Below, one piece after another: positions 5,547 through 60,301 of a stretch of DNA of 64,000 nucleotides (within the stretch, counting starts at the first letter, position 1; every line of letters starts with the position of its first letter). Position numbers and translations under genes: made by a program. The notes beneath the pieces were generated by a model. The model was given only the letters and a program-made list of their open reading frames with translations. It was not told the origin of the DNA and made no database searches. The stretch covers positions 403,786-467,785 of the forward strand of contig CAXXMU010000005.1 of the NCBI GenBank assembly GCA_963667785.2, given 5' to 3'. Source of the stretch: Alphaproteobacteria bacterium (GTDB lineage Bacteria; Pseudomonadota; Alphaproteobacteria; UBA828).

Positions 5547-5773
5547 CACCCCGGACCATGGTGCGGTGCAGGGCGCGCAGCGGGCGTGCGACGATCGCGC
5601 CATGCAGTGCGTGAGAGAACGGGGCGGGGCAGACGGGGCGACGGGGGGAGCCGCCCGGCGCCACCCCGCGGTCGTGGGATTCATCCCGGAAACCCGCTCG
5701 GATATCCCAGCGGAATCCCACCTTCTTCGGAAAATGTCCCGCGCGGAATCCCTTGCTATCCCGGCGAATCCCG
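5547..5773 (+). repeat. Dispersed ~220-bp intergenic element, copy A (phased ATCCC/GANTC array)
   Basis: Matches the reverse complement of 59831-60046. The first 24 nt (CACCCCGGACCATGGTGCGGTGCA) are identical, and the alignment is gap-free for ~175 bp at about 80% identity by hand count. Confidence 0.9.
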
Positions 5774-5838
5774 TCAGGGAGGGGGCACTGCCGAATCCCA
5801 CTTTCGCGCCGCGCTCCTGCCTGCCCCGCGCGAGACGC

Positions 5839-5916
5839 TGTGCCGCATAAAGTGCCGCGTTGTGCCGGATTGTGCCGGATTGTGCCGCCTAAAAAATTAA
5901 TTTACCGGCTGTGCCA
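5839..5916 (+). repeat. Phased GTGCCG direct-repeat array with AT-rich tract
   Basis: GTGCCG at 5840, 5852, 5862, 5872 and 5882, plus GTGCC at 5911. TAAAAAATTAATTTA lies at 5890-5904. Confidence 0.8.
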
Positions 5917-5978
5917 CTTTGCGCCCCCGTCGCCCGGCCGCGGGTCGCGCCGGCCATGACCCCGGCGAGAAACGCGGG

Positions 5979-7289
5979 CTAGAGGATGAACCTGCTGAGG
6001 TCCGCGTCCTTGGCAAGGTCGCCCACATGGGCCTCGACGTAGGCCGCATCGATGGTGATGGTCTCGCCGGAGCGGTCGGCGGCCTCGAAGCTGATCTCCT
6101 CCAGCAGCTTCTCCATCACCGTGTGCAGCCGGCGCGCGCCGATGTTCTCGACCGAGCGGTTGACCTCGGCGGCGAGGTCGGAGACCGCGTCGATGGCGCA
6201 GTCGCTGAAGTCCAGCGTCACGCTCTCGGTCTGCATCAGCGCCCGGTACTGGCGGATCAGGCTGTTCTCGGGCTCGGTCAGGATCTTCTTCAGGTCGTCG
6301 CGGGCGAGCGCCCTGAGCTCGACCCGGATCGGCAGCCGCCCCTGGAGCTCGGGCAGCAGGTCGGCCGGCTTCGCCAGGTGGAAGGCGCCAGACGCGATGA
6401 AGAGGATGTGGTCGGTGGTGATCGCGCCGTGCTTGGTGGAGACGGTGGTGCCCTCGATCAGCGGCAGCAGGTCGCGCTGCACGCCCTCGCGGCTCACGTC
6501 GGCGCCGAGCCGGTCGGAGCGGGCGCAGATCTTGTCGATCTCGTCGATGAAGACGATGCCGTCGTTCCCGGCGCTCTCCAGCGCGCTGCGCACGACCTCG
6601 TCCTGATCGAGCAGGCTGTCGCTCTCCTCGGCCATCAGCGCGTCATAGGAGTCCTCGACCGACATGCGCTTGATCTTCTTCTGCTCGCCGAAGGCCTTGC
6701 CGAACATCTCGCCGAGATTGACCATGCCCATCTGGGCGCCCGGCATGCCGGGGATCTCGAAGGTCGGCAGCGACGAGGCCGCGGATTCGCTCACCTCGAT
6801 GTCCACCTCCTTCTCGGCGAGCGTGCCTTCGCGCAGCATCTTGCGGAACTTGGTGCGGGTCTCCTTGCTCGCGTTCTTGCCCACCAGCGCATCGAGCACG
6901 CGCTCCTCGGCGTTGAGCTCGGCCCGGGCGGCCACCTCCTTGCGCATGCGCTCGCGGGTCATGTGGATCGAGATCTCCACCAGGTCGCGCACGATCTGCT
7001 CGACGTCGCGGCCGACGTAGCCGACCTCGGTGAACTTGGTCGCCTCGACCTTGAGGAAGGGCGCCTGGGCGAGGCGCGCGAGCCGGCGCGCGATCTCGGT
7101 CTTGCCGACGCCCGTGGGGCCGATCATCAGGATGTTCTTGGGCAGCACCTCCTCGCGCAGGTCGCCGGTGAGCTGCTGGCGCCGCCAACGGTTGCGCAGC
7201 GCGATCGCCACCGAGCGCTTGGCCTCGTCCTGGCCGATGATGAAGCGGTCCAGCTCGGAGACGATCTCGCGCGGGCTGAATCCACTCAT
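5979..7289 (-). CDS. hslU: ATP-dependent protease ATPase subunit HslU
   Basis: [38 protein letters not shown] and [10 protein letters not shown] motifs. Confidence 0.98.
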
Positions 7290-58446: not shown

Positions 58447-59802
58447 GTGATGTGGCGACGCCGGTTCGCGGTTGCGGCACTCGTTTCGCTGTTCTCGGCG
58501 ATGGCCGCCGCCGGGGCGCTGGCCGCGCCGTCGGTGGTCGACGTCCGCATCGGCGAGTACGGCGACGGGACCCGCCTGGTCCTGGACCTCACCGAGGCGA
58601 CGACCTTCGAGGTCTCCACGCTGAGCGGGCCGGACCGCCTGGTGGTCGACCTGCCGCCGGTGGCCTGGGCGGTGGGAGGACGGTCCCTCTCGATCGGCCG
58701 CGCAGGCGTGGTGCAGGTGCGCTTCGGCCAGTTCAGCCGGGACACCTCCCGCGTCGTGGTCGACCTCACCCGCCCGGCAATCGTGCAGCGGACGTTCATG
58801 CTGGCGCCGCGCGCGGGCGGCTCGTCCGTCCACCGCCTGCTGGTGGATTTCGGCGCGGTCCCGGTCGCAGCTCTTCCCGCCGCAGAGCCCGAACCGGCCG
58901 GCGCGGCCCCGGTCACGGCAACTCCCGCCGCCGAGCCCATCGCGCGATCCACCGGGCCCGTCGCGCTATCCGCCGAACCCGTCGCGCGATCCGCCAGGCC
59001 CGCGCCGGGGGAGGAGGAGGCCGTCCCCGACCCGGAGCCCCCGGTGCCGGCGGCGCTCGCGCGGCAGACCGAGCGGCGCGCGCCCCCGCCCCTGCCGCGG
59101 CAGAAGCCGGCGACGCGCGTGCCCCGCCTGATCGCGATCGACGCCGGCCATGGCGGCGCCGACCCCGGCGCCATCGCGGCGGACGGGGTGAAGGAGAAGA
59201 ACCTCGTCCTGACCTTCTCGCGCGAGCTCGGCGCGGCGCTCGAGGAGAGCGGCAGGTACCGCGCGGTGATGACCCGCGACGGCGACCGCAAGATCTCGCT
59301 CAGGCGGCGCGTCGCCATCGCCCGGGAGGCGGACGCCGAGGCGTTCCTCTCGATCCACGCCGACCGCGTGGACGAATCCTGGGTGCAGGGTGTCTCGGTC
59401 TACACGCTGTCTGACGAGGCGTCGGACCTGGAGACCGCCGAGCTCGCGGCGCGCGAGAACAGGGCCGACATCGTCGTCGACGTCGATCTCTCGGAGGGCT
59501 ACGACGAGGACACGGCGAAGGTGCTGATCTCGCTGGTCCAGCAGAACACGATGAACTGCTCGGCGGCGCTCGCGGCCCGCCTGCTGCCGGAGCTCGGCGG
59601 CGTGGCGCCGCTGGTCAAGCGCTCCCACCGCTTCGGCAACTTCCGCGTCCTCAAGGCGCCGGACATCCCGTCGGTCCTGGTCGAGCTGGGCTTCCTGTCC
59701 AACGACGAGGACCTGGAGCGGCTGCGGAGCGGGAGCCACCGGCGCGCGCTCGCGGGCGCGATCGAGCGGGCGCTCGACCGCTTCTTCGGCGAGCCCTGCT
59801 GA
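58447..59802 (+). CDS. amiC: N-acetylmuramoyl-L-alanine amidase (AMIN + Amidase_3)
   Basis: AMIN repeats (TRLVLDL, RLVVDL), IDAGHGGADPG, EK, FLSIHAD and VLVELGFLSN. Confidence 0.92.
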   Translation: MMWRRRFAVAALVSLFSAMAAAGALAAPSVVDVRIGEYGDGTRLVLDLTEATTFEVSTLSGPDRLVVDLPPVAWAVGGRSLSIGRAGVVQVRFGQFSRDTSRVVVDLTRPAIVQRTFMLAPRAGGSSVHRLLVDFGAVPVAALPAAEPEPAGAAPVTATPAAEPIARSTGPVALSAEPVARSARPAPGEEEAVPDPEPPVPAALARQTERRAPPPLPRQKPATRVPRLIAIDAGHGGADPGAIAADGVKEKNLVLTFSRELGAALEESGRYRAVMTRDGDRKISLRRRVAIAREADAEAFLSIHADRVDESWVQGVSVYTLSDEASDLETAELAARENRADIVVDVDLSEGYDEDTAKVLISLVQQNTMNCSAALAARLLPELGGVAPLVKRSHRFGNFRVLKAPDIPSVLVELGFLSNDEDLERLRSGSHRRALAGAIERALDRFFGEPC

Positions 59803-59830
59803 GCGGCGATCCCGCCCAAGGGGGGGCATG

Positions 59831-60046
59831 CGGGATTCCGTGGGATAGCAAGGGATTCCGCGGAGACGTGGGTGGGATTCCGCTGGGATATTGGGTGGGA
59901 TATCCGGGATGAATCCCACGACCGTGACGCGGCGCCCGGCGACGTGCCCCTTCGCTCCGTCTGACCCGATCCGTTCGTTCACGCGCTGCATGGCGCGATC
60001 TTGGCGCCTGCGCCAAGCGCCGTGCACCGCACCATGGTCCGGGGTG
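59831..60046 (-). repeat. Dispersed ~220-bp intergenic element, copy B
   Basis: Reverse complement of 5547-5773, 11 bp shorter. GGGAT occurs at 59832, 59842, 59852, 59874, 59885, 59897 and 59906. Confidence 0.9.
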
Positions 60047-60301
60047 TCGCGCATGCCCGCAGGGTCATGCGCGCGGGAGAAGAGTCCCTCGCGCCTGAGT
60101 CGCTCGTGCCTGCAAGGTCACGAGCGCGGTACATGAGGATCGCGAACACGGAAAGAGAGTCCGCGCGCCGCCGATCCCGCCGCACGATCGCCGCAATCGC
60201 GTGGTCTCGTGCGCCGGTGCGCGCAGGCGGAACCGGCCGCGCGCGAATGGTGGTAGGCTGGGACGCCCTTCGACTCCGGCAGGCGTTAGGCCCTCGCGCA
60301 G

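Follow-up and report, generated by a model that had tools for sequence, protein, structure and literature searches.

A dispersed intergenic repeat of a sponge-associated alphaproteobacterium as a gene-less derivative of a probably phage-derived cassette with a predicted Mu-type late promoter and decamer arrays

The window analysed here, a stretch of 64,000 nucleotides (contig C5:403786-467785) from an alphaproteobacterial genome of 4.09 Mb, 70% GC and 98% completeness, contains two copies of an intergenic sequence, copy A (5547-5773, plus strand) and copy B (59831-60046, minus strand), which an initial annotation had described as a novel element of about 220 bp with helically phased ATCCC motifs. 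We find that the 227 bp of copy A are only the first half of a 435-bp non-coding cassette (5549-5981), and we favour, with a probability of roughly 0.55, the reading that this cassette is a gene-less derivative of a phage-derived cassette of about 1 kb, in which a phage-triggered promoter precedes repeat arrays that would act as a pac-like platform for the cassette's own gp27-like protein, a member of the Mu gp27 family. The cassette has become dispersed over the chromosomes of a single group of bacteria associated with sponges. The relatives of the genome are metagenome-assembled genomes (MAGs) labelled Alphaproteobacteria/Rhodospirillales, and the 20 sequencing runs that contain parts of the stretch are mostly labelled sponge metagenome. 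In limited word searches of the literature, which do not prove that it is unpublished, we found no account of such a cassette.

Alignment of the two copies with their flanks in MAFFT gave 81% column identity, gap-free from about column 53 to 235 and then interrupted by a single 11-column gap, and BLASTN gave 77.5% identity over 227 bp. The alignment thus bears out the hand count of the initial annotation, including its one net indel of 11 bp. The GGGAT-TC-ATCCC palindrome (5676-5687) and the ACCATGGT-centred dyad it had pointed out can be read directly from the sequence, and its ATCCC spacings for copy A (Table 1) were confirmed; in copy B the difference between 33 and 22 bp was recovered, but the interval given as 21 bp contains a further ATCCC, so that the series becomes 9, 12, 11, 22, 10 and 10. 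As it had also stated, substitutions between the copies fall mainly between the motifs (motif columns are 97.3% identical, non-motif columns 73.1%), terminal inverted repeats are absent from the alignments, as judged by eye, and there is no coding signal: the frame opened by the ATG of copy A has a GC content at third codon positions (GC3) of 0.73, against 0.89-0.94 in the real genes that lie behind the same ATG elsewhere. The element is therefore real and repeated, but both its extent and its count of two were set too low. Chance is excluded, as the 227-bp query has 54 matches in the genome, ten of which cover at least 170 bp.

A hidden Markov model (HMM) of the first 66 bp of the element, here called the head, recovered 37 copies bearing the predicted promoter in this genome, and an HMM of the whole element gave 45 matches that resolve into 32 loci with modular variants, namely a head with an ATCCC array, a head with ATCCC and GTGCC arrays, or a head with a GTGCC array only. 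Five elements of 430-445 bp, copy A among them, share the entire architecture end to end. Heads are found in 17 of the 20 other genomes of the genus and in none of four other genera of the family, with three weak single matches further away. An exact pattern run against a species collection returned 64 loci, 55 of them in Alphaproteobacteria/Rhodospirillales MAGs; the remaining nine are chance matches within genes of unrelated bacteria.

By its composition, the frame that begins at the ATG of the head is non-coding in the majority of copies in this genome (GC3 0.59-0.83). Behind some heads, orphan phage-type genes are found, each alone between host housekeeping genes. Two belong to the Mu gp27 family (C6:55589-56146 and C6:83868-83281; PF11985, E 1e-16 and 5e-20; PHROG 426, 'terminase small subunit'), one is a Mu portal fragment of 383 aa (C8:115040-116191; PF06074, E 1e-83), one head precedes a DUF5675 and phrog_6637 pair (C8:122059-123079) that also opens the late arm of a resident Mu-like prophage, and a homologue of a protease (49% identity, E 2e-80) follows its head after an 87-nt leader. 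The two orphan gp27 genes sit in paralogous units that start exactly at the dyad of the head and end with a GTGCC array of the type seen in copy A, an A/T patch and GTG(C/T)C(A/G)CTTCGCG..CCCGGCC. In the relatives, full units of 0.8-1.2 kb consist of head, gp27 gene and array and lie between host genes; in the commonest clade the gene runs directly into the array GGAATCCTGCGGA-ATCCCACTTA-ATCCCACTTA-ATCCCGGCGA-ATCCCGCCCGG-AAAA. The gp27-like gene is multicopy there: 17 genomes have between 1 and 14 matches, a number that rises to 15 in G003 when the threshold is relaxed, and three have none. Those three are the same genomes that lack heads, both being present in the other 17.

Across the units the gp27-like proteins match PF11985 with E-values of 1e-16 to 7e-24 and PHROG 426 with 9e-18 to 2e-24. 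They are 185-360 aa long and consist of a helix-turn-helix (HTH) and helical segments with no match to a catalytic domain; an AlphaFold2 model (predicted local distance difference test score 77) has an N-terminal HTH followed by long helices. Aligned from end to end, an orphan protein shares 30% identity with the prophage terS, whose gene overlaps and precedes terL. A word-based search with the protein retrieved only six relatives, and a sequence search of the PDB none. By eye, copy A retains the first codons of the gene (MQC.., resembling the gene start MQCES...) and the last 40 bp or so that precede the array in relatives, together with the ATCCC array, its terminal unit and the complete GTGCC module. 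Copy A is thus an internally deleted, gene-less derivative of the full unit, and copy B a shorter one. The earlier suggestion of a non-autonomous element holds in this sense, as a derivative of a larger, gene-bearing unit.

The head itself has the layout of a late promoter of phage Mu. We scored promoter features on an alignment of 92 unique heads, in which the dyad CCG(G/C)ACCATGGTGCGG(TGCAC) is near-invariant and is followed by about 19 variable bases, a -10 hexamer nAnnnT with A(-11) in at least 90% and T(-7) in 100% of the heads, six further bases and an ATG whose A and G are invariant and whose T is present in at least 90%. Taking the invariant T as -7 places the A of the ATG at +1 and the centre of the dyad at -43.5. 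In the Mor/C-dependent late promoters of Mu (Plys, PI, PP and Pmom), as described in PMC2582627, C is bound at a 16-bp dyad centred at -43.5 that overlaps the position of a missing -35 box, and the -10 box is recognisable. Dyad, -10 box and ATG are conserved in the gene-less copies too. No Shine-Dalgarno sequence precedes the ATG in most gene-bearing copies, and a leaderless mRNA that starts on the ATG would therefore be the simplest reading.

The same geometry recurs in the resident prophage (C1:177700-213000, outside the window; loci L192, L193 and L195), which is Mu-like and, over two divergent arms, complete in its genes for head, tail, terminase and transposase. Its minus arm carries protease, scaffold, major head, sheath, tube, tape-measure and baseplate genes, and its plus arm transposase, Gam-like, HNH, late activator, DUF5675, phrog_6637, terS, terL, portal and F genes. 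Two late promoters, at C1:192083 and C1:205635, hold identical 26-bp palindromes. The dyad at C1:205635 (GTTCACGGGACCATGGTCCCGTGAAC) lies directly after the late-activator gene (C1:205279-205620), ahead of the lysis/terminase arm, and is followed by TACCAT at the distance that separates dyad and -10 box in the head. At C1:192083, before the head-maturation protease gene, CAGACT stands at this distance and an ATG begins seven bases later, making this promoter leaderless or nearly so. The core GGACCATGG is common to the head dyad and the prophage dyads, and 10 of 13 positions of the right half-site are alike. An activator-type gene is encoded in the genome, with two matches to phrog_836 (E 2.5e-15 for the late activator), the Pfam Mor match of which scores 23.6 bits, under the cut-off of 24.9. 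In light of the shared geometry and core, we assign the head, by its sequence, as a Mu-type late promoter. The invariant 24-nt end pointed out in the initial annotation is not the end of a transposon but would be the activator site of this promoter.

The likeness extends to position, heads being placed before lysis-region, terminase-region and protease genes, and to the resident prophage with its Mor/C-type activator gene and two such promoters. In contrast to Mu, the host chromosome carries about 37 copies at dispersed places, the majority with no gene to drive; transcripts from the heads are predicted to be leaderless, and 2-3 positions in the half-sites of the head dyad deviate from the dyads of the resident prophage. 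Metatranscriptome contigs cover 5613-6014 at a depth of 1-2, with no strand or ends, and one RNA run contained 0.11 of the words of the stretch. A Portal_Mu match is present in all 17 head-bearing genomes, in 15 of them at 293-305 bits as in the C1 prophage, and among the head-less genomes two have none and one a partial match; this co-occurrence is not a statistical test because the genomes are kin. The C1 prophage may be an old, conserved and possibly domesticated element.

The repeat arrays are tied to the heads and are constrained at the level of the motif. In this genome a head precedes, in the same orientation, 24/24 of the clusters with four or more ATCCC, 29/30 of the tight triples and 9/11 of the GTGCC triples. 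The spacings are 10 bp (55 cases), 11 bp (12), 9 bp (4), 19-22 bp (14) and 33 bp (7), with 24-27 bp to the terminal unit (15), counts that are not independent because many arrays copy one ancestral array. Among eight copies of type A the motif columns are 99.3% identical, against 83.8% between motifs, and only 1/40 motif columns vary as compared with 25/60 non-motif columns (Fisher p = 4.2e-6); the promoter spacer has drifted to 67% and the non-coding middle to 74% identity. Where arrays overlap open reading frames (ORFs), the motif falls in all three frames (..PVDPWNPAESHLIPLNPGES..; (PGESHFVPPD)n at L155), and a 10-nt repeat read in three frames implies a constraint on nucleic acid and not on protein. 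The constraint on DNA that had been claimed for the motifs thus stands.

The further claim, that selection acts on helical phase, finds no such support. It rested on a single indel of 11 bp. Comparison of the copies showed this indel of 11 bp in copy B, deletions of 33 bp from the array of two further copies, lying between two CGGAATCCC repeats, and indels of 9 bp in the relatives. All amount to one or three repeat units between direct repeats, so that slippage or unequal exchange explains them and phase selection is not required. The commonest spacing is 10 bp and not 10.5 bp, and the last interval is out of phase. The 10-bp unit itself nevertheless suits binding on one face of the helix.

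The motif type also co-varies with the gp27-like protein. We examined 35 gp27 loci and scored 32 (L115, L157 and L160 were dropped because the helix pattern was unmatched). The residue that follows CSRSA(V/I) is G (SAVG) beside [AG]TCCC arrays in 27/27 loci, V or C (SAVV/SAVC) beside G(G/A)GCC arrays in 3/3 and A (SAVA/SAIA) beside GTGCC arrays in 2/2. Each unit of the GTGCC arrays has its homologue in the GGGCC arrays (..CAC-CTT, ..CGC-TTT, ..CGG-A.T, ..CGG-AAT, ..CGCC, then an A-rich patch), with the same core position changed in every unit. As the unit-specific flanks are intact, homogenisation by slippage is disfavoured as the cause of this concerted change, which would fit a shift of recognition specificity. 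The co-variation and the concerted change are suggestive only, since the loci fall into three clades in which gene and array are linked. We propose that the arrays are a binding platform of the gp27-like protein and form a pac-like site. The initial annotation had envisaged a platform for a polymerising protein; a multi-site platform for an oligomeric DNA-binding protein is indeed our best reading, but the linked protein is of the Mu gp27 family and not a partner of the ParR, TubR or Xis type.

The full cassette comprises a late promoter, a gene, by prediction leaderless, for an HTH protein of the gp27 family, 4-19 repeats of about 10 bp behind or overlapping the gene end, and an A/T patch with one more repeat. 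According to our proposal, the promoter would be silent until a Mu-like phage, or the resident Mu-like element, makes a Mor/C-type late activator. The gp27-like protein would then load on its cognate repeats, one HTH of the oligomer per helical turn, and the array would act as a pac-like site that either recruits the large terminase of the phage to chromosomal DNA, a satellite-like hitch-hiking, or diverts it, as interference. Gene-less copies would act in cis for a protein supplied in trans. Activation by the phage, binding of the repeats and any role in packaging are predictions from the architecture, and the cassette may serve as a packaging site, act as a decoy or represent a selfish relic.

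Several observations weigh against this proposal. The multiplication of a 1-kb unit that has no recombinase is unexplained, and no target duplication was found. A simple sigma-70 scan of copy A returned no full promoter; this is expected of an activator-dependent promoter without a -35 box, but it lends no positive support. The interval to the terminal unit leaves the helical phase of the array, common descent alone could yield the agreement between motif and protein in 32/32 loci, and this genome has no SAVG-type gene although ATCCC arrays are its commonest and best-conserved type. A Foldseek search with the gp27-like model gave no match at E <= 1e-3, small terminases appearing only at E 1-3. 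The orphan gp27 genes have no adjacent large terminase gene, only the prophage copies being followed by terL. In viral contigs of IMG/VR the gp27 homologues (28-48% identity, the maximum over a short segment and the best full-length match at 47%) come without a head, and in the viral gp27 loci that were inspected, 8 of 15, there is no array and the gene continues into further coding sequence. The head pattern had nine matches in viral contigs, none of which is a full head.

A wider version of the proposal, to which we give rather little credence, is a chromosome-wide network of phage-triggered packaging sites, in which some 37 promoters would fire once the conserved Mu-like element, or a relative that infects the cell, makes its late activator, orphan TerS-like proteins would load clade-specific arrays and the large terminase would be drawn to host DNA. 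The outcome might be a minimal 1-kb 'satellite' that spreads with transduced host DNA, a gene-transfer agent derived from Mu whose pac system is distributed over the chromosome, or a defence by decoy, in which capsids are wasted and the activator is titrated. Copy A and other gene-less copies would be the cis-acting sites of the network.

The insertion sites show that the cassette is polymorphic. For copy B, each of the 19 other genus members in which the locus is present has an empty site, with 13-150 bp there against 500 bp here. The site of copy A measures 21-36 bp and is empty in G002, G003 and G013, and in G004, G005 and G017 it is filled by other head elements with GGGCC or mixed arrays. 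The 3' side of the unit faces the 3' end of a convergent gene in 24/32 loci, as judged from GC3-based gene calls that miss genes, for which reason several gene distances are overestimated. Eight copies abut the stop codon of the convergent gene, and 7/8 of these stops are TAG, as compared with 33% genome-wide; at the site of copy A the empty genomes have TGA where this genome has TAG, and the element may land on or replace stop codons. Comparison of empty and filled sites revealed no target-site duplication for copy A. At copy B a direct repeat of 10-11 bp (GCGATCCCGCC / CCGATCCCGCC) flanks the whole block of 395 bp and may belong to the element. Two known origins were considered and rejected: for an IS200 or REP-RAYT derivation there is no Y1 transposase (PF01797 has no match in the genome) and GC hairpins are few (14) and mostly tied to heads, and a CTAG target, as of IS5-like elements, occurs at the left boundary of one copy only.

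These sites are the ground on which a strict non-autonomous mobile element might be argued, with the repeats as sub-terminal sites for a transposition or recombination protein, be it a gp27-like accessory or an unseen enzyme, and the promoter as cargo. Its multiple copies, their presence or absence at orthologous sites and the internally deleted derivatives, as in miniature inverted-repeat transposable elements (MITEs), would suit it, the excess of TAG suggests a target preference, and one unit adjoins a tyrosine integrase gene (L116:2732-3916 in G013; Phage_integrase and Arm-DNA-bind_3, directly upstream of the gp27 unit, at this one locus only). We consider it unlikely: besides the absence of inverted repeats (by eye), of target duplication at the sites compared and of a Y1 transposase, the sole gene found consistently in the unit encodes an HTH and helical protein with no catalytic domain match, the arrays lie on one side only, and the left boundary falls on a promoter operator, one that the prophage has too.

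We rate as equally doubtful a functionless relic, that is, a set of decaying old insertions whose 10-bp period and unit-length indels came from tandem duplication and slippage. The drift of middle and promoter spacer, the size and position of the indels and the lack of a cognate SAVG-type gene in this genome would all follow from it. It does not account for motifs that stay 99% identical while their spacers drift, for the conservation of dyad, -10 box and ATG in copies that have no gene, or for a single-base change concerted across all units of homologous arrays.

A still weaker case can be made for action as RNA, as a phage-activated non-coding transcript that runs antisense into the convergent gene or as a repeat-rich protein sponge. 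Arrays are without exception downstream of a promoter that has the same orientation, in most loci the unit is directed towards a convergent gene's 3' end, and no intrinsic terminator was found inside copy A. Yet Rfam gave no match at the gathering threshold or at E <= 1, folding was no better than that of shuffled sequence (z = +0.51 and +0.23 for the two strands), and in ten copies not one of 49 consensus pairs had changed in a compensatory way. One subfamily has the motif in both orientations, and the motif type co-varies with an HTH protein. A sponge for CsrA, which would be bound through GGGAU on the opposite strand, was rejected as no CsrA gene was found and the GTGCC and GGGCC arrays would be left unexplained.

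Least probable is a replication-origin-like module with the gp27-like protein as initiator: a gene with 4-5 phased direct repeats, an A/T patch of 12-15 bp for unwinding and one more repeat resembles an iteron origin, but the protein matches the Mu gp27 and terS families and not initiators, is homologous over its full length to the prophage terS preceding terL, the ATCCC module has a G/C run in place of the A/T patch, and dozens of chromosomal origins would be harmful.

The features of both copies are listed in Table 1. Copy A is bordered on one side by the stop codon of an ABC-ATPase gene and on the other by that of the convergent AAA-ATPase gene. The 3' end of copy B, which has no GTGCC module, abuts the TGA of an amidase gene (58447-59802), and its other neighbour is a PBP1A gene. 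A tRNA scan of the window found none.

Table 1. Features of copies A and B, in window coordinates
Feature	Position	Strand	Remarks
16-bp dyad CCGGACCATGGTGCGG	5551-5566		Predicted to bind a Mor/C-type late activator; 43.5 bp from its centre to the A of the following ATG (5602)
-10 box GACGAT	5590-5595	+	A at -11, T at -7; no -35 box
Conserved ATG	5602-5604	+	Predicted leaderless transcription start; start codon of gp27-like genes in full units
Non-coding middle	5605-5675	+	Read as 5' and 3' remnants of a deleted gp27-like gene; GC3 0.73
ATCCC array	5676-5772	+	One inverted GGGAT, six ATCCC, one GTCCC; spacings 21, 11, 33 (= 22 + 11), 10, 10
G-run spacer and terminal unit GAATCCCACTTTCGC	5773-5808	+	Terminal unit 27 bp after the array; kept in 7 copies
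GTGCC array	5840-5889	+	Five units; spacings 12, 10, 10, 10
A/T-rich patch TAAAAAATTAATTTA	5890-5905		Equivalent A/T patch after arrays in other units
Terminal unit TGTGCCACTTTGCGCC	5910-5925	+	
GC-rich tail	5926-5981	+	Ends in CTA (5979-5981), on the minus strand the TAG stop of the AAA-ATPase gene (5979-7289), which is convergent
Copy B	59803-60046	-	Dyad 60027-60042; -10 box 59998-60003; ATG 59989-59991; ATCCC array 59832-59910
GC-rich hairpin modules	60047-60190	-	CGCGC..GACC..GGC..GCG type, upstream of the copy B promoter

Some further sequences accompany the cassettes. Many heads have, upstream of them, between one and three hairpin units rich in GC (CGCGCTCG(C/T)GACC..GGC..CGAGCGACTCAGGCGCG); a loose pattern for them has 14 matches genome-wide, ten of which lie on the same strand at most 60 bp upstream of a head, and these units could be an insulating terminator module or a target. 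A repeat of about 130 bp (..TTAATCATTTCCCTCAACGGCGGGCGCTCGCTCCGCTCGCTTGCCTACGCGCC..) often flanks gp27 units on one or both sides (loci L110-L118, L149, L150 and L162 of the relatives), and two other short repeat families, GTCATG(C/G)CCGGAC..GTCCGGGCATGAC(G) hairpins and CCCTCTCCGCCCCTGGGGGCGGAGAGGGCCGGGGTGAGG, occur near cassettes and in many intergenic regions. At L155 (G008:C6:509200-510650) the 3' part of a gp27-like gene consists of 19 TCCC decamers and translates into the repeat given above, three 10-nt units making ten codons. At L140 (G008:C9:1258700-1262950), a site orthologous to that of copy A, a transposase-like ORF of 551 aa interrupts the head; its N-terminus (MFVRIKTTPNSPRRSVQLVE..) resembles that of the IS1634/IS4 type.

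Among known systems, the cassette compares with a small terminase and its pac site (SPP1/SF6 G1P, P22 gp3) and with the pathogenicity islands of Staphylococcus aureus (SaPIs). A terS-family HTH protein is encoded beside direct repeats, and pac usually lies at terS. According to PMC4737164, the pac site of SPP1 contains direct repeats at terS, and in TerS rings each HTH is about one DNA turn from the next. A satellite can carry the gene for an alternative TerS that serves its own pac (PMC11417361). Unlike these, the cassette is only about 1 kb long, is multicopy with gene-less copies outnumbering full ones, has strict 10-mer repeats with clade-specific cores, and has no adjacent gene for a large terminase, integrase, replication or capsid remodelling; binding and packaging are, in our case, predictions. 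Phage satellites (phage-inducible chromosomal islands and SaPIs, P4, PLE) likewise differ from units of 0.8-1.2 kb with one gene or none, to which no integrase, replication or helper-interference genes are consistently linked. With MITEs, BIME/REP and RIME the cassette shares that it is short, non-coding, intergenic, multicopy, modular, insertion-polymorphic and derived by internal deletion from a gene-bearing unit, but it has no terminal inverted repeats (by eye), target duplication, transposase or RAYT, and one of its ends is a functional-looking promoter. The parC/ParR and tubC/TubR centromeres also have phased direct repeats of 10-11 bp resembling a platform for a co-operatively binding HTH protein. 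Here, by contrast, a protein of the Mu gp27 family is linked to arrays that are dispersed over the chromosome, and the units examined have no linked gene for a partition ATPase or GTPase, the gp27-like gene being their only linked ORF (with part of the neighbours searched against Pfam).

If the favoured reading of a phage-triggered cassette with a pac-like array is true, the cassette would be a very small phage-dependent unit, perhaps the smallest seen, made of a helper-activated promoter, a specificity protein and a binding array, together with miniature copies that act only in cis. It would mean that late-promoter and terS/pac modules are able to escape from phages and increase in number within the chromosomes of hosts, and it would offer three natural protein/motif specificities for the study of how small terminases read DNA. 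Even if it is not true, the 'helically phased' repeat is still explained, as a promoter with a tandem decamer array of phage origin. If true, it could explain directed packaging of host DNA or anti-phage interference in uncultured sponge symbionts.

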